64,000 nucleotides of DNA, taken from the NCBI GenBank assembly GCA_951406725.2, contig OX597818.1, positions 71,176,001 through 71,240,000 on the forward strand. The letters are read 5' to 3'. This document shows, one piece after another, positions 433 through 55,986 of the stretch. The position numbers and the translations under genes were made by a program. The stretch comes from Octopus vulgaris (taxonomy: Eukaryota). The notes beneath the pieces are model-generated. The model searched no databases and was not told the origin of the DNA. It saw nothing but the letters and a program-made list of their open reading frames with translations. Position 1 is the first letter of the stretch, and each line of letters begins with the position of its first letter.

Positions 433-493
<61 letters not shown>

Positions 494-526
494 ATATATA
501 TATACATACATATGTATGATTTTGAT
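211..526. repeat. (TA)n/(TACA)n microsatellite
   Basis: Directly visible. Confidence 0.95.
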
Positions 527-6194: not shown

Positions 6195-6939
6195 ATGGCT
6201 GCATCAGGTTTGCCTTCATTCACGGGGGATTCGGGTCTGTGGCTTGCGCAGGTGGAATCCCATTTTGCCGCGCATGCCATTTCTCCACAGCAGCAGTTAC
6301 ATCTGCTGTACTCAAGTTTGCCCTCCCGGCTCGCCACATCGGTGAGGGATCTCATTATGAGTCCCCACCCTGACGCCACATATGCGTCAGTAAAGGCAGA
6401 GATCCTCCGCCGCAACACGCGGTCGGAGGAGAGTCAGTTCAATGAGCTGATGGCCGACGAGCAGTTGGGGGACAGAACTCCATCCCAGTTCCTGCGCCAT
6501 CTAAGGGAGCTCAGCGGCAACGCAGCGGACGCGCCGCTCTTACGAAAAATATTTTTTCCAGGCTGCCTGCCCACGTGCAGACAATGTTGGCCACGGCACT
6601 GGAGTCTGTGTCTGTGGACCAGATCGCCACGATGGCCGACAAAGTATTAGAGTTTTCGCGACCATCTCCCTCGCGGGGCCTGTACGCATGTACAGAGCCC
6701 CCTCTGACACCTCCGACGAACGATAAACTAGCCGAGAAGATCGATGCGCTTACGCAGAGAATCGATGATCTGTGCCGTTCGATCGGGCGCCAACCTCGCA
6801 GTCGTAGTCGCAATAGCTCTATTTCCCGTAGTCGGAGTGACTCTGTTTCTCGTTCCGGCTGGTGCTGGTACCATTCAAAGTATGCCGAAAGGTAGATCAG
6901 TGTACCCAGCCGTGCACTTTCAAGCCCTCGGAAAACTAA
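6195..6939 (+). pseudogene. gag: Gag, with two 1-nt frameshifts (~6555, ~6890)
   Basis: LPSFTGDSGLWLAQVESHF...LGDRTPSQFLRHLR; reconstructed C-terminus CWYHSKY..QCTQPC; TAA 6937-6939 after GGAAAAC. Confidence 0.85.
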
Positions 6940-9900
6940 ATCTGGAGGAGGTGAGCACCTCACCTTCTTCCATCTCGTTTCCCAAAAATCGTGCATTCTT
7001 TGTAAAAGATCTGGTGTCGAAGAAATTCTTCATGGTGGACACCGGCTCTTGTTGCAGCATCTGGCCCCTTCGTCTGGCTGCAGACAAGCCCAAGCGCTCT
7101 TTAATTGTCTTGCATGCTATTGACTCGTCTCCCATAACCACTTACGGTCAGATTTCGCTGCGCCTCGACATCAACCTTCGTCGAGATTTTCAATGGGTTT
7201 TCGTCATCGCTGACATCCCGCATCCTATTCTCGGCACTGATTTCCTGGATAGGTTTAATCTATTGGTGGATGTCAGGCGTCGGAGGCTTCTTGATAGCAC
7301 GACGTCGCTCTCTACACCGACTGGGAGTTCCACCACTGCGGTCCTTAGCCCGACATTCTTTGTTGCCACCTCTGGAGACCCTTTTCACTCTCTTTTGGTT
7401 TCATTTCCGGAGCTAGTGGACATTGCCTTTAAACCGGAAACGCCTACCCACTCGACACTCCATTTTATCACCACCACTGGGCCGCCTGTATTTTCGCGCC
7501 CACGGCGCCTTGCGCCCGACCGACTAAAAACGGCCAGGGCCGAGTTTGAGCACGTGCTTCAACTTGGCCTTATACGCCCCTCCACCAGCCCATGGGCATC
7601 TCCCCTTCATTTGGCGCGAAAGGGCGAGTCTGATTTTCGCCCGGTTGGAGACTATCGACGCCTCAATGCCGTAACAATAGCCGACAGATATCCGATCAGA
7701 AATCTCCAGGACTTTACGGCAAATCTCCATGGTTGTACCATTTTTTCGAAGGTCGACCTTATACGCGCGTACCATCAAATACCGGTCAACCCAGCCGACA
7801 TTCCGAAAACTGCGATCACTACCCCCTTTGGGTGTTTTGAGTTTTTGTATATGAGTTTCGGTTTGTGGAATGCTACTAGCACTTTCCAGCGTTTCATTGA
7901 TGAGGTTGTCCGCGGTCTTGATTTTGTGTTTGCCTATGTCGATGATATACTCATTGCGAGCGACACACGTGAAAATCATCTCCAGCACCTTTCTCAGCTT
8001 TTTCAGCGTCTTCGCGCTTATAGTATACGTATAAATCCCGACAAGTGTGTTTTCGGACGCTCTTCCCTAGATTTTCTAGGCCATCATATTGATTCGAGTG
8101 GAATCAGCCCTCTCTCGTCAAAAGTCGATGCCATTCAACGCATCGCACCCCCCACTTCCTTGCGCCAGCTCAGGCATTATCTAGGGATGATCAATTTCTA
8201 CAGACGTTTTATTCCCGGTTGTGCAGATAAGCTACTACCTCTCACCAGGCTATTAAAGGACACTCCTAGAAAGGACAGTCAAGTCACCCTCTCTGTTGAG
8301 GCAGTGACAGCCTTTGAGTCCATTAAGAAGGAGCTGGCTTCTGTTTCTTTGCTTGCACATCCAGTTCCTGGTGCTTCTCTCTCTCTTTGACTGTAGACGC
8401 ATCGGACACTGCGATTGGCGCTGTGTTACAACACACAGTGGATGATCATATTCGACCTCTGGCTTTCTTTTCCCGTCAACTGCAACCAGCTGAACGACGA
8501 TACAGCACCTTTGATCGTGAACTCCTAGCGATCTATCTATCGGTTCGTCATTTCCAGCATCAACTTGAAGGGCGAGATTTTGTGATCTATACGGATCACA
8601 AGCCCCTTACGTTTGCCCTGTGTTCAAAAACGGACAAACTCTCACCTCGTGCTTTCCGGCACCTGGATCTTATCTCTCAATTCACTAGTAACATTCGACA
8701 CATACCTGGAAAAGAGAACGTTCCTGCTGACGCTCTCTCTCTCGCCTTCCAGTCTGCGCCCTTTCGTCTCCTGCTGCTATCGACTTAGCTGCCATCTCGC
8801 AGGAGCAGCCACCTTTGGCGTCGTTAGACTTAACTTCTCCCAAGTTCTCCTGTTGCCAGTTTTCCTACCTTCCGCTTCCGTCAGCCGAAGGCACCATTCT
8901 TTGTGATACTGCCACTGGTTCTCCCAGGCCACTCGTGCCTGAGAACCATCAACGCTCAGTGTTTGAAGCACTGCACTCCGTATCACATCCTGGCATGGCT
9001 GCCACCCTTAACCTAATCACTGCTCGGTTTTTCTGGCCGAATATGCGTCGCACTATTACTTCTTGGACACGCACCTGCTCCAAGTGTCAACGGTCCAAGA
9101 TTCAACGGCACGTTCGTGCCCCGCTTGGACAATTTCCCCCCACGGAGGCCCGTTTTCGCCATGTCCACATCGATCTGGTTGGACCATGGCCTGTGAGTCG
9201 CGGGTTTTCTTATCTGTTAACTTGTGTCGATCGCTTCTCCCGCTGGCCAGAAGCCATTCCGATAGCAGACATTTCTGCTGAGACTGTTGCGCGAACTTTC
9301 GTTTCAAACTGGATTTCTCGCTTCGGAGTCCCGTCCCGATTGACAACTGATCGTGGACGTCAGTTTGAAGCCTCGCTATTTCGCGAATTGTCGCGAATTT
9401 TAAGTGTGCACCATATCCACACCACTAGCTACCATCCAGCGTCTAATGGATTAGTTGAGCGGTTCCATAGACAGCTCAAGGCTGCTCTTCGTGCCTCTTC
9501 AGATCCACAGTCTTGGATTGAATTTCTGCCCATTGTGCTCCTCGGTTGTCGGACTGCTGTCAAGGCAGACCTGGGGTTTTCTGCTGCAGAGCTGCTGTAT
9601 GGTACCACACTGGCATTGCCTGGTACGATGTTGGTGCTAGACACTTCCCAGTCCCATGATCCGGCGACTTATGTCACCAGACTGCGTGCATATTTTTCGA
9701 ACCTTCCACCCATGGTTCCCAGGAAGCAATCTCCACCATCCCATCTTCCACAGGATATGGAAACTTGGTCGCATGTTTTTGTTCGGGACGACTCTGTGAA
9801 GGGGCCACTTGTTTCTCCCTATAAAGGACCTTTCCGTGTGCTTTCTCGCACACCAAAGGTTTTCACTATTGAGATAAATGGTCGTTCGGAGACCGTTTCC

Positions 9901-10134
9901 GTGGACCGATTAAAAAAAGCGTATTTTGAGACGTCTTCATCTTTTGATGACAACCTTGACACACCCACCTATGCACCTTTAACAACACCTTCACCTGCAC
10001 AGACGCCTTTGCCTTCACCGGCTCCTACAACACCACCCTCGCCGTCAACGGGTGCCCCGAGCACACCGTATGTTACACGATCGGGCAGAACAGTGCATTG
10101 GCCCAAGAAACTTTCAAAGACAATCTATATTTAA
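6930..10134 (+). pseudogene. pol: Pol (protease, RT, RNase H, integrase), with two frameshifts in (CT)n runs
   Basis: VDTGS protease; YVDD RT; DAS/YSTFDRELLA RNase H; [32 protein letters not shown] integrase; YKGPF. Confidence 0.92.
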
Positions 10135-10850: not shown

Positions 10851-11790
10851 TTGACTTCCGGCTTCGTAGAGTAAACATGTGTTGCTTTGCCCTGTGATAA
10901 AAAAACAAGAAGGTTTGCATAAATCGACGAAATAATAGGCGAAAACTCATAAAAAACGTAGAAATTGTTACCTTATAGACGTGTACTCGGATATTTTGGT
11001 TAAAGACCGCAATATATTTTGCTACAAGTCAAGTATAGTACACTAAAGTTTAGCAACGCACGCCAGATTTCCCTGTCGAAATAAGCACGTGGTGAAATCT
11101 TCTAAATTTATTTCCAGTCGACTCTAACAGCAAAAAGAACCGTTTTTCTTTTCTTTTTTTGAAAAAAACCTCTTCGTATACCTCTTATAAGATAAGTACC
11201 CCTTTTCATTCATTCATTTTCCCGTAATTCAATGTAAGGTCTCTGTTTACATTCTGTAATAATCTATCGTTAACTCCGTTACATCTATTTTTTATATATT
11301 TATTTATTACTCTGTTTATATATGTGTATGCGCACATGTGTGTATATATTTGTATATATATGTGTATATATATGTATATATATATATGTGTGAATATATA
11401 TGTATGTGTGTGTGTTAGAAGTATAGTCGCAATTAGCTTAGATTAGAAGAAATTGTCTGTAGCGACGGACAGATATATATTTTCTTTTTCTATTTTCTCT
11501 GTTTACATTCTGTAATAATCTCTTGGCTTGTTTTTTTAGCTCTTTTATTTTCTTTATATACTTATTTGTCATTTTTCTTTATATATGTGTATGTGCACAC
11601 GTGTGTATATATGTGTATGTATATATATATATGTATACATATGAATATGTGTGTGTGCAATTAGTTTCGTTTAGAAATTGTCTGCGGACAGATATACTGT
11701 ATATATTCTTTTTCTATCACTTCTTTCTAGCTCTGTCTCTTCCCTTCTTTCCCTCACGCATTTCCATGTCTCATCATTACTCTCTTCTTT
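10851..11790 (+). promoter_or_regulatory. Putative 5' leader/internal promoter of LINE family A
   Basis: Begins abruptly after (TA)n with ACTTCCGG; relatively CpG-rich; internal duplication 11260-11480/11497-11710; grades into the satellite. Confidence 0.4.
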
Positions 11791-14700
11791 CAGCTCTCAA
11801 TCTCTCTTCATTCTCTTCTTTCCAACTCTCCACTTTCAGCTCTCAATCTCTCTTTAAGCACATAGACGCTTTCTTTCTCTCTTTCAGCTCTCAATCTCTC
11901 TTTAAGTACACATAGACGCTTTCTTTTCTCTTTCACTCTCAATCTCTCTTTTAAGCACATAGACGCTTTTCTCTTCTTTCAGCTCTCAATCTCTTCTTCT
12001 AGACGCTTTCTTTCTCCTCTTTCAGCTCTCAATCTCTCTTTAAGCACATAGACGCTTTCTTTCTCTTCTTTCAGCTCTCAATCTCTCTTTAAGCACATAG
12101 ACGCTTTCTTCTTTCTCTTCAGCTCTCAATCTCTCTTTAAGCACATAGACGCTTTCTTTCTCTCTTTCAGCTCTCAATCTCTTTAAACATCGCTTCTTTC
12201 TCTTCTTTCTAATCTCTTCTCCTTTTTCTTTCAGCTCTCAATCTCTCTTTAAGCACATAGACGCTTTCTTTCTCTTCTTTCAGCTCAAAATCTCTTTAAG
12301 CACATAGACGCTTTCTTTCTCTTCATTCAGCTCTCAATCTCTCTTTAAGTACATAGACGCTTTCTTTCTCTTCTTTCAGCTCTCAAGCTCTCTTTAAGCA
12401 CATACACGCTTTCTTTCTCTTCTTTCAGCTCTCAATCTCTCTTTGAGCACATAGACGCTTTCTTTCTCCTCTTTCAGCTCTCAATCCCTCTTTAAGCACA
12501 TAGACGCTTTCTTTCTCTTCTTTCAGCTCTCAATCTCTCTTTAAGCACAAAGACGCTTTCTTTCTCCTCTTTCAGCTCTCAAGCTCTCTTCTTTCTTTTC
12601 TTTCTTACTCTCTTTTCAGCTCTCAATCTCTCTTTAAGCACATAGACGCTTTCTTTCTCTTCTTTCAGCTCTCAATCTCTCTTTAAGTACATAGACGCTT
12701 TCTTTCTCTCTTTCAGCTCTCAATCTCTCTTTAAGACATAGACGCTTTCTTTCTCTTTTTCAGCTCTCAATCTCTTTTAAGTCATAGACGCTTTCTTTCT
12801 CTTCTTTCAGCTCTCAATCTCTTTTAAGCACATAGACGCTTTCTTTCTCTTTCAGCTCTCAATCTCTTTGACATAACGCTTTCTTTCTCTTCTTTCAGCT
12901 CTCAATCTCTCTTTAAGCACATAGACGCTTTCTTTCTCTTCTTTCAGCTCTCAATCTCTCTTTAAGCACATAGACGCTTTCTTTCTCTTCTTTCAGCTCT
13001 CAATCTCTCTTTAAGCACATAGACGCTTTCTTTCTTTCTTTCAGCTCTCAATCTCTCTTTAAGCACATAGACGCTTTCTTTCTCTTCTTTCAGCTCTCAA
13101 TCTCTCTTTAAGCACATAGACGCTTTCTTTCTCTTCTTTCAGCTCTCAATCTCTCTTTAAGCACATAGACGCTTTCTTTCTCTTCTTTCAGCTCTCAATC
13201 TCTCTTTAAGACATAGACGCTTTCTTTCTCTTCTTTCAGCTCTCAATCTCTCTTTAAGCACATAGACGCTTTCTTTCTCTTCTTTCAGCTCTCAATCTCT
13301 CTTTAAGTACATAGACGCTTTCTTTCTCTTCTTTCAGCTCTCAATCTCTACGTACATAGACGCTTTCTTTCTCTTCTTTCAGCTCTCAATCTCTATTTAC
13401 GTACATAGACGCTTTTTTTCTCTTCTTTCAACTCTCAATCTCTCTTTAAGTACATAGCCGCTTTCTTTCTCTTCTTTCAGCTCTCAATCTCTCTTTAAGT
13501 ACATAGACGCTTTCTTTCTCTTCTTTCAGCTCTCAATCTCTCTTTAAGCACATAGACGCTTTCTTTCTCTTCTTTCAGCTCTCAATCTCTCTTTAAGCAC
13601 ATAGACGCTTTCTTTCTCTTCTTTCAGCTCTCAATCTCTCTTTAAGCACATAGACGCTTTCTTTCTCTTCTTTCAGCTCTCAATCTCTCTTTAAGTACAT
13701 AGACGCTTTCTCTTCTTTCAGCTCTCAATCTCTCTTTAAGCACATAGACGCTTTCTTTCTCTTCTTTCAGCTCTCAATCTCTCTTTAAGTACATAGACGC
13801 TTTCTTTCTCTTCTTTCAGCTCTCAATCTCTCTTTAAGCACATAGACGCTTTCTTTCTCTTCTTTCAGCTCTCAATCTCTTTTAAGCTCATAGACGCTTT
13901 CTTTCTCTTCTTTCAGCTCTCAATCTCTCTTTAAGTACATAGACGCTTTCTTTCTCTTCTTTCAGCTCTCAATCTCTCTTTAAGCACATAGACGCTTTCT
14001 TTCTCTTCTTTCAGCTCTCAATCTCTCTTTAAGCACATAGACGCTTTCTTTCTCTTCTTTCAGCTCTCAATCTCTCTTTAAGTACATAGACGCTTTCTTT
14101 CTCTTCTTTCAGCTCTCATTCTCTCTTTAAGTACATAGACGCTTTCTTTCTCTTCTTTCAGTTCTCAATCTCTCTTTAAGCACATAGACGCTTTCTTTCT
14201 CTTCTTTCAGCTCTCAATCTCTCTTTAAGTACATAGACGCTTTCTTTCTCTTCTTTCAGCTCTCAATCTCTCTTTAAGCACATAGACGCTTTCTTTCTCT
14301 TCTTTCAGCTCTCAATCTCTCTTTAAGTACATAGACGCTTTCTTTCTCTTCTTTCAGCTCTCAATCTCTCTTTAAGCACATAGACGCTTTCTTTCTCTTC
14401 TTTCAGCTCTCAATCTCTCTTTAAGCACATAGAAGCTTTCTTTCTCTTCTTTCAGCTCTCAATCTCTCTTTAAGCACATAGACGCTTTCTTTCTCTTCTT
14501 TCAGCTCTCAATCTCTCTTTAAGCACATAGACGCTTTCTTTCTCTTCTTTCAGCTCTCAATCTCTCTTTAAGCACATAGACGCTTTCTTTCTCTTCTTTC
14601 AGCTCTCAATCTCTCTTAAGCACATAGACGCTTTCTTTCTCTTCTTTCAGCTCTCAATCTCTCTTTAAGCACATAGACGCTTTCTTTCTCTTCTTTCAGC

Positions 14701-17700
14701 TCTCAATCTCCTTTAAGCACATAGACGCTTTCTTTCTCTTCTTTCAGCTCTCAATCTCTCTTTAAGCACATAGACGCTTTCTTTCTCTTCTTTCAGCTCT
14801 CAATCTCTCTTTAAGCACATAGACGCTTTCTTTCTCTTCTTTCAGCTCTCAATCTCTTTAAGCACATAGACGCTTTCTTTCTCTTCTTTCAGCTCTCAAT
14901 CTCTCTTTAAGCACATAGACGCTTTCTTTCTCTTCTTTCAGCTCTCAATCTCTTTTAAGCACATAGACGCTTTCTTTCTCTTCTTTCAGCTCTCAATCTC
15001 TCTTTAAGTACATAGACGCTTTCTTTCTCTTCTTTCAGCTCTCAATCTCTCTTTAAGCACATAGACGCTTTCTTTCTCTTCTTTCAGCTCTCAATCTCTC
15101 TTTAAGCACATAGACGCTTTCTTCTCTTCTTTCAGCTCTCAATCTCTCTTTAAGCACATAGACGCTTTCTTTCTCTTCTTTCAGCTCTCAATCTCTCTTT
15201 AAGCACATAGACGCTTTCTTTCTCTTCTTTCAGCTCTCAATCTCTCTTTAAGCACATAGACGCTTTCTTTCTCTTCTTTCAGCTCATAGACGCTTTCTTT
15301 CTCTTCTTTCAGCTCTCAATCTCTCTTTAAGACATAGACGCTTTCTTCTCTTCTTTCAGCTCTCAATCTCTCTTTAAGCACATAGACGCTTTCTTTCTCT
15401 TCTTTCAGCTCTCAATCTCTCTTTAAGCACATAGACGCTTTCTTTCTCTTCTTTCAGCTCTCAATCTCTCTTTTAGCTCATAGACGCTTTCTTTCTCTTC
15501 TTTCAGCTCTCAATCTCTCTTTAAGTACATAGACGCTTTCTTTCTCTTCTTTCAGCTCTCAATCTCTCTTTAGTACATAGACGCTTTCTTTCTCTTCTTT
15601 CAGCTCTCAATCTCTCTTTAAGCACATAGACGCTTTTCTCTTCAGCTCTCAATCTCTCTTTAAGTACATAGACGCTTTCTTTCTCTTCTTTCAGCTCTCA
15701 ATCTCTCTTTAAGCACATAGACGCTTTCTTTCTCTTCTTTCAGCTCTCAATCTCTCTTTAAGCACATAGACGCTTTCTTTCTCTTCTTTCAGCTCTCAAT
15801 CTCTCTTTAAGCACATAGACGCTTTCTTTCTCTTCTTTCAGCTCTCAATCTCTCTTTAAGTACATAGACGCTTTCTTTCTCTTCTTCTCAGCTCTCAATC
15901 TCTTTAAGTACATAGACGCTTTCTTTCTCTTCTTTCAGCTCTCAATCTCTCTTAAGTACATAGACGCTTTCTTTCTCTTCTTTCAGCTCTCAATCTCTCT
16001 TTAAGCACATAGACGCTTTCTTTCTCTTCTTTCAGCTCTCAATCTCTCTTTAAGTACATAGACGCTTTCTTTCTTCTTTCAGCTCTCAATCTCTCTTTAA
16101 AGTACATAGACGCTTTCTTTCTCTTCTTCAGCTCTCAATCTCTCTTTAAGTACATAGACGCTTTCTTTCTCTTCTTTCAGCTCTCAATCTCTTTAAGTAC
16201 ATAGACGCTTTCTTTCTCTTCTTTCAGCTCTCAATCTCTCTTTAGCTTTTAAGTACATAGACGCTTTCTTTCTCTTCTTTCAGCTCTCAATCTCTCTTTA
16301 AGCCATAGACGCTTTCTTTCTCTTCTTTCAGCTCTCAATCTCTCTTTAAGTACATAGACGCTTTCTTTCTCTTCTTTCAGCTCTCAATCTCTCTTTAAGT
16401 ACATAGACGCTTTCTTTTTCTTCTTTCAGCTCTCAATCTCTTTAAGCACATAGACGCTTTCTTTCTCTTCTTTCAGCTCTCAATCTCTTCTTCTCAATCT
16501 TTAAGTACATAGACGCTTTCTTTCTCTTCTTTCAGCTCTCAATCTCTCTTTAAGTACATAGACGCTTTCTTTCTCTTCTTTCAGCTCTCAATCTCTCTTT
16601 AAGCATAGACGCTTTCTTTCTCTTCTTTCAGCTCTCAATCTCTCTTTAAGTACATAGACGCTTTCTTTCTCTTCTTTCAGCTCTCAATCTCTCTTTAAGT
16701 ACATAGACGCTTTCTTTTCTTCTTTCAGCTCTCAATCTCTCTTTAAGTACATAGACGCTTTCTTTCTCTTCTTTCAGCTCTCAATCTCTCTTTAAGTACA
16801 TAGACGCTTTCTTTCTCTTCTTTCAGCTCTCAATCTCTCTTTAAGTACATAGACGCTTTCTTTCTCTTCTTTCAGCTCTCAATCTCTCTTTAAGCACATA
16901 GACGCTTTCTTTCTCTTCTTTCAGCTCTCAATCTCTCTTTAAGCACATAGACGCTTTCTTTCTCTTCTTTCAGCTCTCAATCTCTCTTTAAGCACATAGA
17001 CGCTTTCTTTCTCTTTCTTTCAGCTCTCAATCTCTCTTTAAGCACATAGACGCTTTCTTTCTCTTCTTTCAGCTCTCAATCTCTCTTTAAGCACATAGAC
17101 GCTTTCTTTCTCTTCTTTCAGCTCTCAATCTCTCTTTAAGCACATAGACGCTTTCTTTCTCTTCTTTCAGCTCTCAATCTCTCTTTAAGTACATAGACGC
17201 TTTCTTTCTCTTCTTTCAGCTCTCAATCTCTCTTTAAGTACATAGACGCTTTCTTTCTCTTCTTTCAGCTCTCAATCTCTCTTTAAGTACATAGACGCTT
17301 TCTTTCTCTTCTTTCAGCTCTCAATCTCTCTTTAAGCACATAGACGCTTTCTTTCTTCTTCTTTCAGCTCTCAATCTCTTTAAGCACATAGACGCTTTCT
17401 TTCTCTTCTTTCAGCTCTCAATCTCTCTTTAAGTACATAGACGCTTTCTTTCTCTTCTTTCAGCTCAATCTCTCTTTAAGTACATAGACGCTTTCTTTCT
17501 CTTCTTTCAGCTCTCAATCTCTCTTTAAGCACATAGACGCTTTCTTTCTCTTCTTTCAGCTCTCAATCTCTCTTTAAGCTAGACGCTTTCTTTCTCTTCT
17601 TCAGCTCTCAATCTCTCTTTAAGACATAGACGCTTTCTTTCTCTTCTTTCAGCTCTCAATCTCTCTTTAAGTACATAGACGCTTTCTTTCTCTTCTTTCA

Positions 17701-20700
17701 GCTCTCAATCTCTCTTTAAGTACATAGACGCTTTCTTTCTCTTCTTTCAGCTCTCAGCTCTCATCTCTCTTTTAAGCACATAGACGCTTTCTTTCTCTCT
17801 CTTTTTAACAGCTCTCAATCTCTCTTTAACACATAGACGCTTTCTTTCTCTTCTTTCAGCTCTCAATCTCTCTTTAAGCACGTAGACGCTTTCTTTCTCT
17901 TCTTTCAGCTCTCAATCTCTCTTTAAGCACGTAGACGCTTTCTTTCTCTTCTTTCAGCTCTCAATCTCTCTATAAGTACATAGACGCTTTCTTTCTCTTC
18001 TTTCAGCTCTCAATCTCTCTTTAAGCACGTAGACGCTTTCTTTCTCTTTCTTTCAGCTCTCAATCTCTCTTTAAGTACATAGACGCTTTCTTTCTCTTCT
18101 TTCAGCTCTCAATCTCTCTTTAAGCACATAGACGCTTTCTTTCTCTTCTTTCAGCTCTCAATCTCTTTAAGCACATAGATTTTTCTCTTCTTTCAGCTCT
18201 CAATCTCTCTTTAAGTACATAGACGCTTTCTTTCTTCTTCTTCTCAGCTTTCTCTCTTTCAGCTCTCAATCTCTCTTTAGCACATAGACGCTTTCTTTCT
18301 CTTCTTTCAGCTCTCAATCTCTCTTTAAGCATAGACGCTTTCTTTCTCTTCTTTCAGCTCTCAATCTCTTTTAGCACATAGACGCTTTCTTTCTCTTCTT
18401 TCAGCTCTCAATCTCTCTTTAAGACATAGACGCTTTCTTTCTCTTCTTTCAGCTCTCAATCTCTCTTTAAGTACATAGACGCTTTCTTTCTCTCTTTCAG
18501 CTCTCAATCTCTCTTTAAGCACATAGACGCTTTCTTTCTCTTCTTTCAGCTCTCAATCTCTCTAAGACATAGACGCTTTCTTCTCTTCTTTCAGCTCTCA
18601 ATCTCTCTTTAAGCACATAGACGCTTTCTTCTCTTCTTTCAGCTCTCAATCTCTCTTTAAGTACATAGACGCTTTCTTTCTCTTCTTTCAGCTCTCAATC
18701 TCTCTTTAAGCACATAGACGCTTTCTTTCTCTTCTTTCAGCTCTCAATCTCTCTTTAAGCACATAGACGCTTTCTTTCTCTTCTTTCAGCTCTCAATCTC
18801 TCTTTAAGCACATAGACGCTTTCTTTCTTTCTCTAATCTTTTTAGCTTTCTTTCTCTTCTTTCAGCTCTCAATCTCTCTTTAAGCACATAGACGCTTTCT
18901 TTCTCTTCTTTCAGCTCTCAATCTCTCTTTAAGCACATAGACGCTTTCTTTTTCTTTCTTTCAGCTCTCAATCTCTCTTTAAGCACATAGACGCTTTCTT
19001 TCTCTTCTTTCAGCTCTCAATCTCTCTTTAAGCACATAGACGCTTTCTTTCTCTTCTTTCAGCTCTCAATCTCTCTTTAAGCACATAGACGCTTTCTTTC
19101 TCTTCTTTCAGCTCTCAATCTCTCTTTAAGCACATAGACGCTTTCTTTCTCTTCTTTCAGCTCTCAATCTCTCTTTAAGCACATAGACGCTTTCTTTCTC
19201 TCTTTCAGCTCTCAATCCCTCTTTAAGCACATAGACGCTTTCTTTCTCTTCTTTCAGCTCTCAATCTCTCTTTAAGTACATAGACGCTTTCTTTCTCTTC
19301 TTTCAGCTCTCAATCTCTCTTTAAGTACATAGACGCTTTCTTTCTCTTCTTTCAGCTCTCAATCTCTCTTTAAGTACATAGACGCTTTCTTTCTCTTCTT
19401 TCAGCTCTCAATCTCTCTTTAATTACATAGACGCTTTTCTTTCTCTTCTTTCAGCTCTCAATCTCTCTTTAAGCACATAGACGCTTTCTTTCTCTTCTTT
19501 CAGCTCTCAATCTCTATTTACGTACATAGACGCTTTTTTTCTCTTCTTTCAGCTCTCAATCTCTCTTTAAGTACATAGACTCTTTCTTTCTCTTCTTTCA
19601 GCTCTCAATCTCTCTTTAAGTACATAGAAGCTTTCTTTCTCTTCTTTCAGCTCTCAATCTCTACGTACATAGACGCTTTCTTTCTCTTCTTTCAGCTCTC
19701 AAACTCTCTTTAAGCACATAGACGCTTTCTTTCTCTTCTTTCAGCTCTCAATCTCTCTTTAAGCACATAGACGCTTTCTTTCTCTTCTTTCAGCTCTCAA
19801 TCTCTCTTTAAGCACATAGACGCTTTCTTTCTCTTCTTTCAGCTCTCAATCTCTCTTTAAGCACATAGACGCTTTCTTTCTCTTCTTTCAGCTCTCAATC
19901 TCTCTTTATGTACATAGACGCTTTCATTCTCTTCTTTCAACTCTCAATCTCTCTTTAAGCACATAGACGCTTTCTTTCTCTTCTTTCAGCTCTCAATCTC
20001 TCTTTAAGCACATAGACGCTTTCTTTCTCCTCTTTCAGCTCTCAATCTCTCTTTATGTACATAGACGCTTTCTTTCTCTTCTTTCAGCTCTCAATCTCTC
20101 TTTAAGCACATAGACGCTTTCTTTCTCTTCTTTCAGCTCTCAATCCCTCTTTAAGCACATAGACGCTTTCTTTCTCTTCTTTCAGCTCTCAATCTCTCTT
20201 TAAGCACAAAGACGCTTTCTTTCTCTTCTTTCAGCTCTCAATCTCTCTTTAAGCACATAGACGCTTCTTCCTCTTCTTTCAGCTCTCAATCTCTCTTTAA
20301 GCACAAAGACGCTTTCTTTCTCCTCTTTCAGCTCTCAAGCTCTCTTCTTTCTCTTCTTTCTTACTCTCCTGTTTCAGCTCTCAATCTCTCTTTAAGCACA
20401 TAGACGCTTTCTTTCTCTTCTTTCAGCTCTCAATCTCTCTTTAAGCACATAGACGCTTTCATTCTCCTCTTTCAGCTCTCAATCTCTCTTTATTACATAA
20501 ACGCTTTCTTTCTCTTCTTTCAGCTCTCAATCTCTATTTAGGTACATAGACGCTTTCTTTCTCCTCTTTCAGCTCTCAATCTCTCTTCTTTCTCTTCTTT
20601 CTTACTCTCCTCTTTCAGCTTTCAATCTCTCTTCTTTCAGCTCTCTTTAAGTACATAGACGCTTTCTTTCTCTTCTTTCAGCTCTCAATCTCTCTTCTTT

Positions 20701-20990
20701 CAGCTCTCAATCTCTCTTCTTTCAGCTCTCAATCTCTCTTCTTTCAGCTCTCAATCTCTCTTTAAGCACATAGACGCTTTCTTTCTCTTCTTTCAGCTCT
20801 CAATCTCTCTTTAAGCACATAGACGCTTTCTTTCTCTTCTTTTAGCTCTCAATCTCTCTTCTGTCTTGCTCTCCTCTTTCAGCTCTCAATCTCTCTTTAA
20901 GTACATAGACGCTTTCTTTCTGTTCTTTCAGCTCTCAATCTCTCGTCTTCCTCTTCTTTCTTACTCCCTTCTTTCGGCTCCCAATCTCTC
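11790..20990. repeat. 49-bp tandem satellite, ~185 copies
   Basis: Unit AGCTCTCAATCTCTCTTTAAG(C/T)ACATAGACGCTTTCTTTCTCTTCTTTC; period 49 (13501 vs 13550); degenerate edges. Confidence 0.97.
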
Positions 20991-21103
20991 TTTATGTACA
21001 TTGACGCTCTCTTTCTCTATTTCTTCCCTACCCCCTATTGCACTATTAAGTTAATATAAATTTATATAATTAGATAGATTGATAGATAGATAAAATATTA
21101 AGA

Positions 21104-21997
21104 ATGTCCAGAACCTGGAAAAGTGACGAATTGACGTTGTTTTTGAGAGGATGGCGATGCGCCGACGGAGATAATCCGAATAATATAATTACGGCTGCGC
21201 TGAAGAGCAGCGGATACAAACGGACGTTAGCTCAAATAGAACGGAAGAAGCAGGAGTTTATACGCTCCTATGCACTTATCAGATCGCACATTAACACGCT
21301 GGATGCCATCTTTGACAGCGAACAATGTAAAGATGGCAACGATGGAGACGCGGATGCTAATGAAAAAAGTCACCCCCACCTGGTAGACACCCAGGAAAAA
21401 AACTCCAGTGAGAAACCTGCCCGGGAAGTAAACCCAAGTGCAACTGCTCCTACCAGCACCAAAAGCCATGGAGATAAAAGAACCAAAAAAGGAGGAAAAA
21501 CTAAAACTAAAACTCAGGCAAAACCAAAAAATGAAACAGCCAAGGATAGAAGCAAACCTGACTATCCATATACCAAAAAGGATGGAAACAAACAGCGCAC
21601 ACGGGTGTGTAGGTTCTTTCTGAGAGGTGCCTGCTGGCTTGGAGAGGAAGGTTCAGGCTGCGCTTTTGCACATCCGGGACCCTGCCGCAGAGACACGAAA
21701 CAGGTCAGAAACCAACTACCGAAAGGAAAAGGGATGGACCACGCACCACCTGCCCCAAAACGGAAGTACACAGATGTGGTGCATGCCACAAACCGCCAAC
21801 GTGTTGTTGAAAGGACAGCTGCTGAACAAGAATCTTTTTTGTGCATGGCACAAAAGATTGTACAGCAGCTAACCTGGCTCCATCAAACTCAAGCTCGCAG
21901 ATGGGACTATCCACAGTTCACAAGACCACCACAGCAAATAGACCCAAGGTGGACACCACCGGCAACAGCATACACCTCACCTCGATGCTCCTACTGA
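21104..21997 (+). CDS. LINE family A ORF1: Myb/SANT-like (trihelix) N-terminus plus CCCH zinc finger
   Basis: W..DE..LFL..W...I..AL...GYKRT..QI..K......Y; CRFFLRGAC(x8)CAFAH; overlaps ORF2. Confidence 0.8.
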   Translation: MSRTWKSDELTLFLRGWRCADGDNPNNIITAALKSSGYKRTLAQIERKKQEFIRSYALIRSHINTLDAIFDSEQCKDGNDGDADANEKSHPHLVDTQEKNSSEKPAREVNPSATAPTSTKSHGDKRTKKGGKTKTKTQAKPKNETAKDRSKPDYPYTKKDGNKQRTRVCRFFLRGACWLGEEGSGCAFAHPGPCRRDTKQVRNQLPKGKGMDHAPPAPKRKYTDVVHATNRQRVVERTAAEQESFLCMAQKIVQQLTWLHQTQARRWDYPQFTRPPQQIDPRWTPPATAYTSPRCSY

Positions 21998-24900
21998 ACA
22001 TCAGAGGACTACTAACACACAGTAACAGGACAAAAATCCCGTTCTTGAGAGACTTTGTTGCATGCAATCAAGCCTTATGCATAGCACTTACAGAAACACG
22101 CCTGAAACCGGACGTAGCGGATGCGGAATTACACATACCACAGTATGTTGTACTACGGACCGACAGAAAAGAAAGGAGTCATGGAGGAGTTGCTATGTAC
22201 ATCCGCGAGGACTTCAAACCCCAGGTCCTTTTGTCATACTCAAACTCGGTGTGTGACACACTAATTGTACATGTAAGGCAACTTGGTGTACTTGTGTGTG
22301 CTACATATCGGCCTCCAGATGCCCCAAGCCATATAGGCAAGTTTGAAGACTGCCTTATAAAAATAGAAGAAGTTCTAGTCACACTAGAACAGCACATAAG
22401 TGTACTTCTCATGGGAGACTTCAATCTACCCAATGTCAGATGGCCCGAGGGCCTTTCTCTCCCAGGAATGACACGATGTGAACGGGGACAGGCGAGGTCC
22501 CACCTGAACCTCATCAACACCCTGTACATGGAGCAAGTAATACTCCAACCAACCAGGGCAGGTAACACACTGGATCTCTGCTTCACAAATAATATGGATC
22601 TCATCCATAATGTGAAAGTGACACCGACACTACTCTCGGATCACAACATGGTAGAGCTGACCATGTACGGGCCAAAGGAAAGCATGGACATGCAGCCTAC
22701 AAGAAACTCAGAATCTTTCCAGCTTGAACTTCAATAAGGCAAACTGGAAACAAATTGAGAAAGAGATCCTCAAACAAAACTGGCCTAAATGTCTCCGCCA
22801 GACATCGACATGAAACTTCAACAATTCATGTCTGTAATGCAAGCCATATGTTACAAATGTGTCCCAGAGAGAAAGGCCACTATACACAAGAACAAAATCC
22901 CCAGAGAGAGGAAAATTCTAATGAGACGGCGTACAAAAATCTCAAATCGCCTAAACAAACAAATTGAAAGCAGTGAAAAGTCCCGCCTGAAAATTAAACT
23001 GTTGGTAATTGAAAAATGTCTGCAACTCTCCCATGAAAAGGAAAGAGCAGACAAAGAAGCCTGGGCTATAGACAACATAAAATCTAACCCCAGAGCTTTC
23101 TACAGGTATGCCAAAGAAACAGCTACGGTGCACTGTAAGATAGGCCCACTCCTTGAAAGGGATGGCACACTCACAAGAAATCCAATGAGGGTAAGTGAAA
23201 TACTAAATGAGCAATTCAAGTGTGTTTTCACCCCACCCCTTGGGCATTTCCAAAACACCAATCCAACTGACTTCTTCACCACTACAGATATGGGGTCAGA
23301 GGCGGCGATGATTGATTACATCAATATAAAGGAAGACAATGTAATAAAGGCTATAGATGAGATAAAAACAAACTCAGCTACTGGCCCCGATGGATTCCCG
23401 GCAATCCTTCTAAAAGTATGTAAGAGAGTCCTAGCAAGACCACTGCAGTCTCTCTTTCAGAGCTTCCTTGCAACTGGCAAACTTTCAAGAAAACTGAAGG
23501 AAGGTAAAATATGCCCTATTCATAAAGGAGGTAGCAGAGCGGAGGCCAAGAACTACAGACCTATCTCTCTGACCTCACACATCAGCAAGGTCATGGAACG
23601 AATAGTCAGAAGGAAACTAATCACCTTCCTTGAAGAAAATGACTTGCTGCCTGACACCCAACATGGTTTCCGACCAGGAAGAAGCTGCTTAACTCAGCTC
23701 CTACAACACTATGACTGGGTGCTGAAACGACTGCTCAACCACTCAAATGTGGAAGTCATATATCTCGACTTTGCAAAGGCCTTTGATAAAGTCGATCATG
23801 GAATGATATGTCACAAACTGCGTGATCTTGGCATAGTTGGAAAATTGGGAGAATGGCTTCATGACTTTCTGAAGAATAGAAGTCAGGTGGTAGTAGCCAC
23901 AGTTCGTCATCCGGGACACCTGACAGGAAGAGATCCAGTCCTACTTTAAAGACATCCGCATCTACACCATGCAGGTCCCTCAGGTTCTTCAGGACGATAT
24001 TGAAGAGCTGTGGGCCTCTGAAGCCCAGGCTATCACAGTATCTTGTCCTATATCTTGATGGCAAATTTGGAGTCCTTGGTACCACGCAGTGGCACCCGGT
24101 TCTGGCATTTGTGTGACTCTCGATGCCAATCTATCGTTCCATTAACATGCAAATAGTGAGCGGTGTTCCGCAGGGCACTGTTTTGGGACCACTACTGTTC
24201 ATAATGGCTCTCTCAGACATGCCCTCAGCCATGCAGAGAACCCTGAGGACACTAAATATGAGCTGGACAAAATATACAAGTGGGCTGAAAAGAATAGCAT
24301 GCAGTTCAATGCTGAAAAGTTTCAAGCTTTATGCTATCAGCATGCAAAACTGAATGCAATACCCAATGAATACACTGGACCCGGAGGGATTGCAATCCCA
24401 GAGGCACAATCAGTGCGTGATCTGGGTATTCACATGAGTGATGACGCGACCTTTCATGTACATGTTGCTAAACTGGCAATGAAATGTAGACGGCTGGCCG
24501 GATGGATTCTTAGAACCTTTAGAACAAGAGAACAAGAAACCATGATGGTCCTCTGGAGGACACTTGTCCTAAGCCACTTTGACTATTGCTCTCAGCTATG
24601 GTCACCATCCAGTGTCAAGTTGATCACAGAACTTGAGGCGATTCAACGTAGCTACACGAAGAAGATAGCCTCTGTGCAGAATATAAGCTACTGGGAAAGA
24701 CTCAAGAGATTAAAACTCTATTCCTTGGAGTGTAGGCGAGAAAGATATGCCATAATATATATCTGGAAGATCCTGGAAGGATTTGTCCCAAACTTTGGCA
24801 TCGAGAGTCACACAAATGCCAGAACCGGGTGCCACTGCGTGGTACCAAGGACTCCAAATTTGCCATCAAGATATAGGACAAGATACTGTGATAGCCTGGG

Positions 24901-25100
24901 CTTCAGAGGCCCACAGCTCTTCAATATCGTCCTGAAGAACCTGAGGGACCTGCATGGTGTAGATGCGGATGTCTTTAAAGTAGGACTGGATCTCTTCCTG
25001 TCAGGTGTCCCGGATGACCAACTTCACGGCAGGAGGTGCAGCTGAGGGTAAAATCATGTAGCAAACCAAATGGCGGTGCCCCAGCATGGCCACAGCTCAT
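21826..25100 (+). pseudogene. LINE family A ORF2 (APE endonuclease and RT) plus 3' end, disrupted
   Basis: LLNIRGL, ALTET, GGVAMY, YRPP, MGDFNLP, TLDL, SDHN; RT in 22789-23949; deletion removes YADD at ~24238; inverted insert 23900-24129. Confidence 0.92.
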
Positions 25101-26377
25101 GTTTGTGACATATCATTCCATGATCGACTTTCTCAAAGGCCTTTGCAAAGTCGAGATATATGACTTCCACATTTGTGTGGTTGAGCAGTCGTTTCAGCAT
25201 CCAGTCATAGTGTTGTAGAAGCTGAGTTAAGCAGCTTCTTCCTGGTCGGAAACCATGTTGGGTGTCAGGCAGCAAGTCATTTTCTTCAAGGAAGGTGATC
25301 AGTTTCCTTCTGACTATTCGTTCCATGACCTTGCTGATGTGTGAGGTTAGAGAGATAGGTCTGTAGTTCTTGGCCTCCGCTCTGCTACCTCCTTTATGAA
25401 TAGGGCATATTTTACCTTCCTTCAGTTTTCTTGGAAGTTTGCCAGCTGCAAGGAAGCTCTGAAAGAGGAACTGCAGTGGTCTTGCTAGGACTCTCTTACA
25501 TACTTTTAGGAGGATTGCCGGGAATCCATTGGGGCCAGTAGCTGAGTCTGTTTTCATTTCATCTATAGCCTTTATATCGATGTAATCTATCGTCGCCGCC
25601 TCTGATTTTATATCTGCAGTGGTAAAGAAGTCAGTTGGATTGGTGATTTGGAAATGCCCAAGGGGTGGAGTGAAAACACTCTTGAATTGCTCATTCAGTA
25701 TTTCACTTACCCTCATTGGATTTCCTGTGAGTGTGCCATCTTTCCAAGGAGTGGCCCTATTCTACAGTGCACCGTAGCTGTTTCTTTGGCATACCTGTAG
25801 AAAGCTCTGGGGTTAGATTTTATGTTGTCTATAGCCCAGGCTTCTTTGTCTGCTCTTTCCTTTTCATGAGAGAGTTGCAGGCATTTTTCAATTTCCAACA
25901 GTTTTATTTTCAGGCAGGACTTTTCACTGCTTTCAATTTGTTTGTTTAGGCAATTTGAAATTTTTGTACGCCGTCTCATTAAAATTTTCCTCTCTCTGGG
26001 GATTTTGTTCTTGTGTACAGTGGCCTTTCTCTCTGGGACACATTTGTAGCATATGGCTTGCATTACAGACATGAATTGTTGAAGTTTCACGTCGATGTCT
26101 GGCGAGGAGAGACATTCAGGCCAGTTTTGTTTGAGGATCTCTTTCTCAATTTATTTCCAGTTTGCCTTATGGAAGTTCAAGCTGGAAAGATTCTGAGAGT
26201 TTCTTGTAGGCTGCATGTCCATGCTTTCCTTTGGCCCGTACATGGTCAGCTCTACCATGTTGTGATCCGAGAGTAGTGTCGGTGTCACTTTCACATTATG
26301 GATGAGATCCATATTATTTGTGAAGCAGAGATCCAGTGTGCTACCTGCCCTGGTTGGTTGGAGTATTACTTGCTCCA
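25101..26377 (-). mobile_element. Inverted internal LINE family A segment (end of APE to start of RT)
   Basis: ORFs 25054-25716, 25713-26090, 26151-; fused to the 3' end of the + copy. Confidence 0.9.
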
Positions 26378-27628
<1,251 letters not shown>

Positions 27629-45793: not shown

Positions 45794-48700
45794 TCAGAAT
45801 TTGGGCACTATGGCCCACTCAAGTAGAGAGTTATTGTTTACAGAGACATATCCGGGTGTAGGGGGTTTATCCGGGATTTCTTGAAGGAATCTGTCCAAAG
45901 ACTTCTTGAACCCTATAGGGTCAGTTTCTGTTTTAATGTGTTTTGGTGTAATGTTAAAGAGAGCGGGGCCAATTGAGGTGAAATAATTGTGCCGTATTGT
46001 TGTTATGAGATGAGAGTGCGATTTTTGTTTTGGGCGGATGGCACGGGGCCCAAGCCTTGGATGTACCTTAAAGGTGATGCCAACATCATTTGGGCAATGC
46101 TGATGGAATATTTTCCACATCATGCAGATGATGTAGCGCTCACGACGATGTTGGAGAGAATAAAGTTTTAGCTTTTCTAGTCGACCCCAATAGTCGAGGC
46201 CTGTCATGCCATCTATCTTTTTTGTGATTGCCCTTTGAGGTGCTTCAACTTTTATGATACTTTGTTTTGTGTGGTGAGACCACAGTGGACAACAGTATTC
46301 AAGGTGGGGTCGGGCAAAAGTGAAGAAGAGAAGGATAATGGTGTGGATATCTCTCGACTGGAAAGTTCTGAGAATCCAGGAACACATTCTGCGGGCCATG
46401 TCAACTTTGGTGTTTATATGAGTGGCCCAGCTTATGTTGTTGTCCACAATTACTCCCAAGTCTCTGATGTTGTTGGATGCCACGAGAGTTTCACCTGAAG
46501 GAAGGGAGTATGGGAGTTTCAGGGCATCCTCTTTTCCAAAGTGGATTAACTCAAATTTATCCTCGTTCAGCAGCATATTGTTTTTTTCTGCCATTGGATA
46601 ACAGCCAGTAGATCTGACTGAAGGCATGTCCGGTCAATCACCTCATTTATGACCTTCTGTAGCTTGGAATCATCTGCAAAGATTTTTATGTTGCTGTGCT
46701 TGATGATGTCATTAATGCCATTAATGTAGATGATGAAAAGAAGTGGGCCCAGCACAGTGCCTTGCGGAACGCCACTACTGACTTTGGCTGGGCTTGATTT
46801 TACCCCTTCAACTACAACATGTTGAGATCTGTCTGTCAGGAAACACTTGATCCATTTCAGTAACTTTCCAGAGACACCAATGTTGGATAGTTTTTTCAAT
46901 AGGATCTTGTGATCAACCCTGTCGAAGGCCTTACTGAAATCAAGGTAGATGACATCGGTGTTGGAGCCCTCTCCCAAAGCTCTCAAAATGTCATCAAAGT
47001 GATGCAGGAGCTGCGTTAGGCAGTCCCTTCCATTACGGAACCCATGTTGGTTAGAGATCAGCCGTCTGTTGCTTTCCAGAAATTGGGTTATTCGAGATCT
47101 CACCACCCTCTCAAATACCTTGATGATATGAGAGGTGAGTGAGATCAGACGGTAGTTCACTGCAAGGGACTTGTTTCCCTTTTTGAAAACTGGGACAACA
47201 GACTGGGACAGAAGGTTTTTTGGAATATAGCCAGCATTCAGTGAGTTTCTCCACAGATTAGCAAGGGGAGATGCAAGCTGGTGTCGACACACTTTCAGGG
47301 CACAAGCAGGGAACCTATCGGGGCCTACTGCTGAATTGTGTTTTATTTCGTTTATCGCCGCTAAGACATCAGGGGCACTAAACGTTATGTCCGATATAGT
47401 GTGTTGGGGGTTGACATCACTGATACAGCCCAGATCGGCCATATCAGGATTGCTGAAAACAGAGCAGTATTGTTTCTGCAGTATCTCGGCCATGGATTTG
47501 GCATTATCTTGGAGAGTGCCAGTTTCATCAATTAGAGGGCCAACAATGGAGACAGTGACCCTGCATTTCCTCGCAAATGAAAAGAACACTTTGGGGTTGA
47601 GTTTGATTTTTTCAATGGTCCACTTCTCATTTGATCTTTGGTTATTGATGAGGGTCTTCATGCATTGTTGGAGGTTATATTTTATGGATTCAAGCAGTGC
47701 GATAGCCATCGAATGTGTGTGTTGCTGTTGGCAGTACTTTAGTTTGTTAATTTTTTTGTTTGTTCTTTTTATTTTTCTGATAATAGTTTTTCTGTTTTGG
47801 GGGATTCTGCACTTTTTGTTCACAGGTCTTGGTGGGGAGTGTTTCGCACATATGTCTGTGACGGTGTCTACAAAGATCTGCCAAGATGTTTTATGGTTGG
47901 TGGAGATGTGTGTATGTGTAAAGGACCAGTCAACATGTGATAGCTCGTTCCTGATTGCATCCCAGTTGGCATTATGGAGATCCATGTTATCAAATGGGTG
48001 GGCTGGAGGGAGGTCACTAGGATTAGCTTTCAGCTGGTGGAATTTCATGTTACAGAGAACCATGTCATGGTCTGAAAGAAGGGTTTTTTCCACTGTAACG
48101 TTATGTATAGTGTTAGTATGGTTACTAAACACTAGGTCCAAAATGTTCTTCTGATGTCTTGTTGGTGCAAGGACAAGTTGGGACAAGAAAAACTTATTCG
48201 TAAAGTCGAAAAGTGACTCTCCTGCTTCTTTGTCAGCGGTTGAGGCAGGAGTGCTTGGTTTCAAACAGTTTGTAGTCCAGTCAACACAGGGTAGATTGAA
48301 GTCTCCCATCATGAGTAGGTTGCTAGAATGGCACTGTTGAATAAAGCACTTAATGCTGTTGAGGCATTCTTTAAAGCACAGTATGAGTGTTTGGGGCGGC
48401 CTATAGAGCCCAATTACTGTCAGGTCATTGGCTTTGTTGTGCACGGTGACTGATTCACAGTAGCCGTTGGAGAATATACTATTTCCATCTGCCGTAAACG
48501 AATCATGCAGGAAAATGGCAGTTCCACCCTTCCTTCTGCCAATACGATCCGCGTGGATGGTTGTGAAATTCTTCACTCTCACTTCGGCTTCCAAGTGGGA
48601 GTTGTCAAGGTGGGTCTCAGTGAGAATGAAGAAAGGGATGTGGTGTGGTTGGTTACCAACCCAGTCTTCAATGAATTGGACCTTCCATCTTTGTGCATTG

Positions 48701-48924
48701 ATGGAAGGGCTGACACCTTGTGCATTGAGTAGAAATGTGGAGGTTAGTGTAGTGGCTGGTTTTGACTGTTGCAGGGGGCTTGGATTTTTTGTGTGTGTTA
48801 GTGACAGCAATGTGGGGAATTGGTGCACTGGGGTAATAGCATAGGATGGTGTTGAGTGATGGCTAGAATATTTTTGTGTATCTCTTTTGCCATGTTCAAC
48901 ATGGCTAAAAAAGAATTTTTCTGC
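45794..48924 (-). CDS. LINE family B ORF2 (APE and RT); one frameshift in the A-run at ~46585
   Basis: LLNAQG, LTETH, YRPP, MGDFNLP, SDH, QHGFR, YLDFSKAFD, GVPQGTVLGP, FADD; C-terminus LDRFLQEIPDKP. Confidence 0.88.
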
Positions 48925-49406
48925 TTAGGGGGCAGTTTTTGGCTGGAGGTGTGGTTGCACTGTTGGATAGGGTTGTAGTTTCCACTTTTGTTGTTGTTGT
49001 TTTTGTGTCTTCCTGAAAAGACTGGACCAGCATTACTGCAGCATGGTGTGTTTTTATTTTTATTTTTATTCAGGTTTGTGTGTTGGCTTGAAGCCCCGTT
49101 TCTGTTTGTGCGTCGGGTCCCTGGAAGATGAGTGAAGGGACAGTCACTCAGTAGACATGTTCTCTCACGTTGGGAATACCGGCAGATTTTGGGACTCCGA
49201 GTTGTGTGTGTTTTGAATTTCGATTTACTATTTGGTGGTGTTGATGTTATTGAGGGATGCGTGCTTTGGCCTTGGCCGGTAGTGCGTCTAGTGCCAGGTA
49301 GATGTGTGAAGATGCAGTCACTATTTGTGCAGAGTCTCTGATGCAGTGAATAATGGCATATTTTGGGGTTTCTTGTTTGTGCCGTGGGGGGCGCATTCTG
49401 CTTCAT
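48798..49406 (-). CDS. LINE family B ORF1 (possibly 5'-incomplete) with two tandem CCCH fingers
   Basis: PKIC-x8-C-x4-C-x3-HLPGTRRT occurs twice. Confidence 0.78.
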   Translation of the reverse strand: MKQNAPPTAQTRNPKICHYSLHQRLCTNSDCIFTHLPGTRRTTGQGQSTHPSITSTPPNSKSKFKTHTTRSPKICRYSQRERTCLLSDCPFTHLPGTRRTNRNGASSQHTNLNKNKNKNTPCCSNAGPVFSGRHKNNNNKSGNYNPIQQCNHTSSQKLPPKQKNSFLAMLNMAKEIHKNILAITQHHPMLLPQCTNSPHCCH

Positions 49407-49626
49407 ATGTTTCTTTAAGTTTTTGTTACTGCAGTAGTATTGAGGTGGTGATGTGGGGGAAGAGAGCAGTGGTTTCTTATTTGGTTTTTTGTTGGTATTT
49501 TTGGTGATAGAAGACGATGGTGGCAGCGGTGGTGATGATGATGATAATTGTGGTGGTTGCCGTGAGAGCAGTGTATATATATGTATATATATATATGTAT
49601 ATATATATGTATATATATATATATGT

Positions 49627-49658
<32 letters not shown>

Positions 49659-49785
49659 GTATATTTATATATGTATATATATGTATATATATATATATGT
49701 ATATATATGCATATATATATATGTATGTATATATATATATGTATATATATATGTATATATATATGTATATATATATATATGTATA

Positions 49786-52040: not shown

Positions 52041-52087
52041 GATAAAGATATAAAGAAGATGTATTTATATATGTATATATGTATATT

Positions 52088-55940: not shown

Positions 55941-55986
55941 AATATATATATATATATATGTATTTATTTATATATATATATATATG

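Follow-up and report, generated by a model that had tools for sequence, protein, structure and literature searches.

The translation of the second open reading frame (ORF2) of LINE elements is treated as an open question in the available text of PMC3894237, in which stop-start coupling, reinitiation, internal entry and 2A sequences are listed and frameshifting is not. The same text states that little ORF2p is needed by non-LTR elements. In the accessible sections of PMC5009743, mention of frameshifting among non-LTR elements is limited to HeT-A and TART, and no frameshift was found described for CR1-group LINEs in a literature search covering the main texts of openly available articles. The canonical eukaryotic -1 signal consists of a heptamer X XXY YYZ in the phase of the upstream frame and a stimulator located 5-9 nt downstream of it (PMC7618472, available part), with G excluded from position 7 of the consensus (available parts of PMC7618472 and PMC3458567). 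The heptamers U UUA AAC, G GGA AAC and A AAA AAC are among the most shift-prone on mammalian ribosomes (PMC5009743, same sections). The heptamer U6A alone yields 4-6% -1 shifting in reticulocyte lysate, according to the part of PMC3458567 at hand, and such a level may suffice for elements in which little ORF2p is needed.

The window considered here, that is, the whole stretch of 64,000 nucleotides that was analysed, carries on its plus strand the ORF1/ORF2 boundary of a LINE copy that is broken and belongs to an abundant family, referred to as family A. A search of the own genome (2.8 Gb, 227 contigs) gave 1,802 candidate places for this family, and many genomic copies keep the ORF2 frame open over 1,039 codons. 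In the window copy, ORF1 (21104..21997, 297 aa from the first ATG) runs from a CCCH-type zinc finger through a candidate slip site and a predicted helix to a Q/P-rich tail. The finger (21596..21676) matches Pfam zf-CCCH at E 0.012 and Torus at E 1.8e-5, both under the curated cut-offs, and the protein atlas gave no usable match for this ORF1. At the junction, ORF1 reads GAA TCT TTT TTG TGC ATG and thus contains the heptamer T TTT TTG at 21835..21841, in ORF1 phase (Ser-Phe245-Leu246), as a candidate -1 frameshift site. An amphipathic helix pattern, predicted from hydrophobic spacing, begins at the Phe-Leu pair (21836..21901). The -1 frame is shut by TGA at 21823..21825, three codons 5' of the U-run, and stays open through the APE endonuclease region to 22737 (21826..22737), where the window copy breaks after 303 codons; the remainder of ORF2, the RT region, is interrupted and truncated (22789..25045). 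Between slip site and APE lies a -1-frame linker (21835..21984) that is double-coded with the ORF1 tail. In-frame AUGs stand at 21901..21903 (QMG; GTG in 19 of 60 recent copies) and at 21985..21987 (TSM-LLLN, 10 nt 5' of the ORF1 stop); the latter codon is GTG in 17 of 21 older copies and ATA in sister lineages. A GTG occupies 21949 in that frame. The TGA that ends ORF1 (21995..21997) arises from the codons for Leu and Asn in the first APE strand. Each coordinate in the original prediction, which had been made from this DNA alone, proved correct. Pfam detects APE in family A and in the second family of the window, family B, and RVT_1 in B; RT motifs are present in family A and in its relative P0001.

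Several further observations concern the surroundings of this copy. A C/T-rich tandem satellite of 9 kb (~11500-21000) lies directly 5' of it, more family A fragments occupy 209-4456 and 24795-26381, and the regions 5973-10134 and 50071-60685 hold a decayed gypsy-type LTR element together with several RTE-like LINE pieces, named by their translations. Contigs from 4 of the 24 listed sequencing runs give matches over the stretch, densest at 21824-21877; such contigs cannot show expression or editing.

The reading favoured here, with a probability of about 0.7, is that ORF2 is produced by -1 ribosomal frameshifting, as a Gag-Pol-like fusion of ORF1 and ORF2. A minority of ribosomes would slip back one base at U UUU UUG or U UUU UUA, at the start of the ORF1/ORF2 overlap, with Phe in the P site and Leu in the A site re-pairing on UUU UUU. 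The predicted fusion of ~1,280 aa would comprise ~245 ORF1 residues including the CCCH finger, a linker of ~50 residues, APE and RT. Unshifted ribosomes would make ORF1p with its C-terminal helix and Q/P-rich tail, both absent from the fusion, so that ORF1p would be abundant and the enzyme scarce. What drives the shift is probably, for the most part, the slippery U-run itself.

Conservation was assessed initially within the family A lineage, where 84 of the 120 loci in the junction census spanned the junction. The heptamer T TTT TTG is present in 48 of 60 recent copies and in 14 of 21 older (A2) copies, and it is the family norm rather than a copy-specific mutation. The original prediction had proposed checking for a TTTTTTA consensus; the outcome is negative, and TTA occurs in none of the 60 recent copies. 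In sister lineage H, the Leu codon is TTA in 9 and TTG in 5 of 18 sequences, and in sister lineage G it is TTA in 5 and TTG in 1 of 11, the remainder being decayed or unreadable in both.

To obtain more distant relatives, 160 loci were fetched from metagenome and MAG contigs by their RT motifs, with the junction ignored; with A and B added, the set comprised 162 loci. Two APE-only alignments proved too diverse to seed the locus search, and consequently an alignment of full ORF2 sequences (32 relatives) was used instead. No relative was found among the viral contigs searched. Loci L171-L250 are eukaryote-type LINE contigs within many bacterial and archaeal MAGs and most likely represent host contamination. 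An APE match was obtained in 102 of the 162 loci, and the region upstream of APE was readable in 76. In 29 of these a long ORF1 overlaps ORF2 in the -1 sense, in 11 it does so in the +1 sense, and 36 show neither (the cut-off of 85 open codons was set after inspecting the data).

Ten families, including A, B and the A/B-type families C and D of the own genome, form what may be called the FL type: ORF1 runs on past a Phe-Leu pair into a helix-like pattern. CCCH-like motifs occur in nine of them, the tenth sequence (L094) being cut short. In all ten, the Phe-Leu pair is written T TTT TTR in ORF1 phase (TTA in eight, TTG in A and L184), so that the heptamer fits X XXY YYZ in the zero-frame phase, compared with only 2 of the 39 other Phe-Leu pairs of the same elements. 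This conservation exceeds what the protein needs. From codon usage, the probability of T TTT TTR is 0.01-0.12 per family, and the product, 10^-14.5, overstates independence because B, C and D are alike (APE identity 55-70%, compared with 19-43% among the others). Since the ten families were chosen after the motif had been seen, two independent denominators were applied. In the RT clade that contains A and B (7 rows, 100/99 support in trees without a named reference), 6 of 7 carry T TTT TTR; among CCCH-pattern elements of the -1 class, 7 of 8 do. The exception, L172, which is one of the rows of the RT clade, has an in-phase A AAA AAC at codon 7. An ORF1-frame Met 2-7 codons past the Phe-Leu pair was also seen in all ten families and may perhaps reflect just the make-up of the helix.

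In all ten families, the -1 frame opens 1-6 codons 5' of the heptamer and stays open for 38-134 codons from there to the start of APE. Upstream of the opening its stop density is 5-16 per 100 codons, and across the 603 codons of the overlaps the third frame accumulates 48 stops. If ORF1 is recoded synonymously, 20 stops are predicted for the -1 frame of the overlaps; none is observed, a zero that is in part circular, since openness was itself used to define the region. Taken by itself, family A does not show a significantly open frame (P 0.39). No AUG precedes APE in 6 of the 10 families (B, L091, L092, L094, L179 and L184). In the A lineage, each of the three AUG positions varies, and no AUG remains in 7 of 21 older copies, with at least one kept in 60/60 recent and 14/21 older copies. 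The TSM position is AUG in 57 of 60 recent copies and ATA in the other three, ATA in lineages G and H, and Ile in relative P0001. From these comparisons, the TSM AUG of family A is judged to be recent. Family A may shift less and could use an AUG as well.

Family B, on the minus strand at ~45,800-49,700, is young, its 40 best copies being 98-99% alike. Its ORF1 frame (48798..49664, minus strand), with two CCCH-like motifs and a stop at 48800-48798, contains T TTT TTA at 48906..48912, in a context reading SFLAM. Both families therefore encode SFL.M at this place, as the original prediction had stated. The -1 frame is closed by TAA at 48925..48927, four codons 5' of the U-run, and the ORF2 frame with APE and RT spans 46567..48924 (all minus strand). 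The first ORF2 AUG lies 200 codons past the heptamer and 138 codons inside APE, and the -1 frame is open and AUG-less in 26 of the 27 copies with an intact six-T run. The element ends in a short tandem repeat.

Family E of the own genome (L283-L310) is a young LINE with many open ORF2 frames of 949 codons, whose ORF1 terminates on G GGA AAC TAA and which has no AUG before APE in 17 of the 19 copies that reach the junction. Three single copies (L041, L255 and L265) have gained one base or lost two in the T-run, joining ORF1 and ORF2 in frame; these changes are probably copying or assembly slips.

The wider -1 set was defined by RT similarity and comprised 28 elements, after the near-duplicates L191 and L195 had been dropped and L094 added. 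Expected counts were derived from the rate of X XXY YYZ upstream in the same ORF1s (29 in 8,287 codons). An in-phase heptamer was found within the overlap in 23 of the 28 elements (5.2 expected) and in the first 12 overlap codons in 17 (1.1 expected), compared with 3 in each other phase; the remaining 5 of 28 have no canonical heptamer in the overlap. U UUA AAC, G GGA AAC and A AAA AAC are among the motifs found, and the variation of the heptamer among lineages argues that selection acts on slipperiness and not on the peptide. By eye, and at the protein level only, at least 9 of 157 database proteins with an N-terminal extension show FF or FFR near the place of the slip site. Separately, L105, L106, L181, L191, L195 and L115 carry T TTA AAC or T TTT TTA at the ORF1 stop or close to it, and in L105, L106 and L195 a GC-rich hairpin lies 8-11 nt downstream.

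Among the +1-overlap elements, 7 of 11 (L111, L122, L157, L158, L178, L180 and L226) contain an ORF1-frame TTT C in the overlap (0.76 expected), compared with 4 of 29 in the -1 class (2.9 expected); six of the seven also have an AUG before APE. A UUU C in this position resembles the +1 shift of influenza PA-X.

The ORF2 of these families, with APE followed by RT, is of the CR1-group (Jockey superfamily) type, a label based on RT motifs and on a likeness to esterase-type loci. Pfam found no esterase ORF1, the hallmark of the canonical vertebrate CR1, and detected CCCH/Torus or PHD domains instead. Zenon elements are described as having no ORF1 and a poly-A tail (PMC13343379, available part); here an ORF1 is present and family B ends in its tandem repeat. 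L179 and L184 have a CCCH ORF1 and a slip site, yet fall outside the main RT clade in the best tree. A swap of ORF1 plus slip site into these two is possible; it is not established, because monophyly of all nine CCCH/FL-type RT rows is not rejected (p-AU 0.16).

The original prediction had regarded the junction as a conserved recoding or regulatory RNA element, with the same hairpin architecture in both families. The recoding part is strengthened by the in-phase heptamer, the synonymous positions and the distant families, while the shared hairpin architecture is not supported. Hairpins around the U-run do exist both in A (inner hairpin 21831..21859, U-run in the 5' arm, within an extended stem-loop at 21817..21870 whose outer stem is formed by 21817-21824 and 21863-21870) and in B (48881..48914, minus strand, z -5.6). 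Their upper stems differ in length, however, and cannot be aligned with each other, and stable folds are confined to few families. Family A gives z -2.95 over 121 nt but z -0.93 in a 60-nt window, and the figure of 0 in 100 shuffles for its inner hairpin is circular because the pattern was derived from the sequence itself. In 60-nt windows, B (-5.6) and D (-2.1) are the only two of the ten families with z below -2, and the seven families other than A, B and D range from -1.8 to +1.6. Lineages A, A2 and, in part, H retain the inner hairpin, which lineage G has mostly lost. Pairing is retained in 87% of the inner-stem cells of 17 hand-picked A-lineage sequences, where many A-to-G substitutions are accommodated as U-G; double-sided changes are limited to 3 cells, in one sequence each, and no lineage-level compensatory change was found among the 17.

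Structure at the canonical distance was also sought. In family A, single folds revealed no stimulator 5-9 nt past the heptamer (z +1.0), RNAalifold gave no consensus downstream structure in 15 A-lineage sequences, and a crude H-type scan gave no pseudoknot score above controls in any of the ten families. Downstream structure with z below -2 occurs in B and L094 only. The three reservations attached to the prediction for family A (G at position 7, no structure 5-9 nt downstream, in-frame AUGs) are all upheld. Position 7 is G in A and L184, A in eight families, and either in lineages H and G. The downstream -1 frame is open from the heptamer onward, and the stem-loop or pseudoknot 5-9 nt downstream is lacking in family A. 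As family A departs from two canonical features, the G at Z and the absent downstream stimulator, its site is not classed as a canonical signal. The overlapping hairpin must be unwound by the ribosome before the heptamer is reached, and consequently it cannot be a canonical stimulator 5-9 nt downstream. From the sequence comparisons, the hairpin is not supported as a conserved element and would be at most a lineage-specific modulator. Variable structure is compatible with frameshifting, given that HIV-1 and SIV differ in the stems around the U-run (PMC3616985, available part). A side observation in family B is that 48914-48835 (minus strand) can form two mutually exclusive folds, the U-run hairpin and a downstream stem (z -4.1) that starts 5 nt past the heptamer and reuses the 3' arm of the hairpin; unwinding by the ribosome could switch the former into the latter.

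Two alternative explanations place the origin of ORF2p in a separate initiation event. In termination-reinitiation, which is considered unlikely, ribosomes that finish ORF1 would restart nearby, at an AUG or another codon, and the U-run would be merely a conserved Phe-Leu at the start of the helix. In its favour, 57 of 60 recent family A copies have an AUG 10 nt 5' of the ORF1 stop, and in 8 of 10 families no more than 7 codons separate the stop of ORF1 from the first Asn of APE; moreover, the ORF1 frame past the Phe-Leu pair is conserved as protein, stop-start coupling is known for SART1 (PMC3894237, available text), and L1 tolerates the loss of its ORF2 AUG (PMC1965478, available part). However, a protein constraint leaves codons free, yet T TTT TTR is found at 10 of 10 junctions versus 2 of 39 other pairs. 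The position of the stop is explained by the Leu/Met-Asn codons of APE, which fix it, and in families B, C, L091 and L094 the ORF1 stop has no AUG within 45 nt of it. Restarting also leaves unexplained why the -1 frame opens just before the U-run and why the slippery heptamers of other lineages, though different, stand in that phase too. In the second alternative, ribosomes would enter internally and start at a non-AUG codon just past the U-run, and the open linker would be the N-terminus of ORF2p. Internal entry would account for an open, AUG-less -1 frame and has been proposed for ORF2 of non-LTR elements (PMC3894237, available text). It is nevertheless rated as very improbable: the folds of the ten families and the A lineage disclosed no conserved entry-site structure, and entry of this kind does not require an in-phase X XXY YYZ.

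The other two alternatives seek the function in the RNA or in its synthesis. If the conserved unit were an RNA hairpin serving pausing, packaging or ORF1p binding, the U-run would be kept for pairing with the A-rich arm. The folds of A, B and D, the fully paired heptamer of L184 (7 of 7 positions) and the high pairing of the inner stem agree with this idea. It is judged improbable in view of the three double-sided cells, the mostly unfolded lineage G and the weak z values of the seven other families; in addition, the helix codons for Lys and Glu are purine-rich and would pair with a U-run regardless, and a hairpin has no need for reading-frame phase. Slippage of RNA polymerase on the T-run, adding one U in some transcripts and creating the fusion at the RNA level, predicts the same open -1 frame, and short T-runs do occur among genomic copies (3 of 30 in family B, 5 of 60 in family A). 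Most families, however, have a run of six T's, short for a polymerase to slip on. Such slippage has been raised for A8 and U8 runs (PMC3458567, available part). The run also keeps a fixed codon phase, and in other lineages its place is taken by G GGA AAC or U UUA AAC, both of them motifs for tRNA re-pairing. This explanation is given a very small probability. Ribosomal -1 frameshifting is retained as the preferred reading.

A broader claim is that frameshifting is a general and ancient route to a Gag-Pol-like enzyme fusion in two-ORF LINEs of the CR1 group, with interchangeable slip signals and little or no need for downstream structure. The chances of this being right are put at about even. 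The signals would be U UUU UUA/G in CCCH-type ORF1s and U UUA AAC, G GGA AAC or A AAA AAC elsewhere, and possibly a +1 shift at UUU C in the +1-overlap lineages. If a whole branch of the group does frameshift, its enzyme would be an ORF1-ORF2 fusion. ORF2 annotations that begin at the first AUG would then be truncated (by 138 APE residues in family B), and retrotransposition assays would need an intact junction. Family A would represent a natural U6G site working without an obvious stimulator. Families B and E, which are young, AUG-less and represented by many intact copies in the own genome, are well suited as test cases.

Among known systems, the closest likeness is to HIV-1 gag-pol (PMC5009743, PMC3616985 and PMC3458567, each in its available part), whose heptamer U UUU UUA is identical to that of 8 of the 10 families and whose two frames overlap in the same -1 sense. 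As in HIV-1, the U-run can lie within a stem (PMC3616985, available part), a third-frame stop stands directly past the heptamer (here in 6 of the 10 families), and the tail of the upstream frame is predicted to be replaced in the fusion. Unlike HIV-1, these are non-LTR elements of the APE-RT type in which no protease was found; a conserved downstream stem-loop is absent from the families, and UUG is used in A and L184.

Among non-LTR elements, the APE-type TRE5-A and TRE3-A of Dictyostelium have two ORFs, and their ORF2 is stated to need a -1 frameshift (PMC5911963). They belong to another host kingdom and another element lineage, and the statement, in the available text, gives neither a slip site nor a test, whereas the CR1-group families have a defined and conserved heptamer. 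The bicistronic RNAs of SART1, with its UAAUG coupling, and of L1, with reinitiation, likewise need little ORF2p (PMC3894237 and PMC1965478, available parts); these routes yield a separate ORF2p and not a fusion, and UAAUG occurs at the ORF1 stop in none of the ten families.

The canonical CR1 elements of vertebrates (PMC13343379; PMC4120745 for subgroup CR1_7; available parts) share the APE-RT ORF2 of the CR1 group, and neither "frameshift" nor "CCCH" appears in the available main text of these two sources. The loci whose ORF1 end is similar to that of vertebrate CR1 (L105, L106 and L181) have their T TTA AAC or T TTT TTA beside the ORF1 stop. In the families described here, by contrast, ORF1 has CCCH fingers in place of an esterase, and 32-134 codons of ORF1 follow the slip site before the stop, so that the helix would be lost from the fusion. 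What sets these families apart from the known systems is a candidate U6A/U6G slip site inside a CCCH-type ORF1, at a mid-ORF1 position, in LINEs of the CR1 group.
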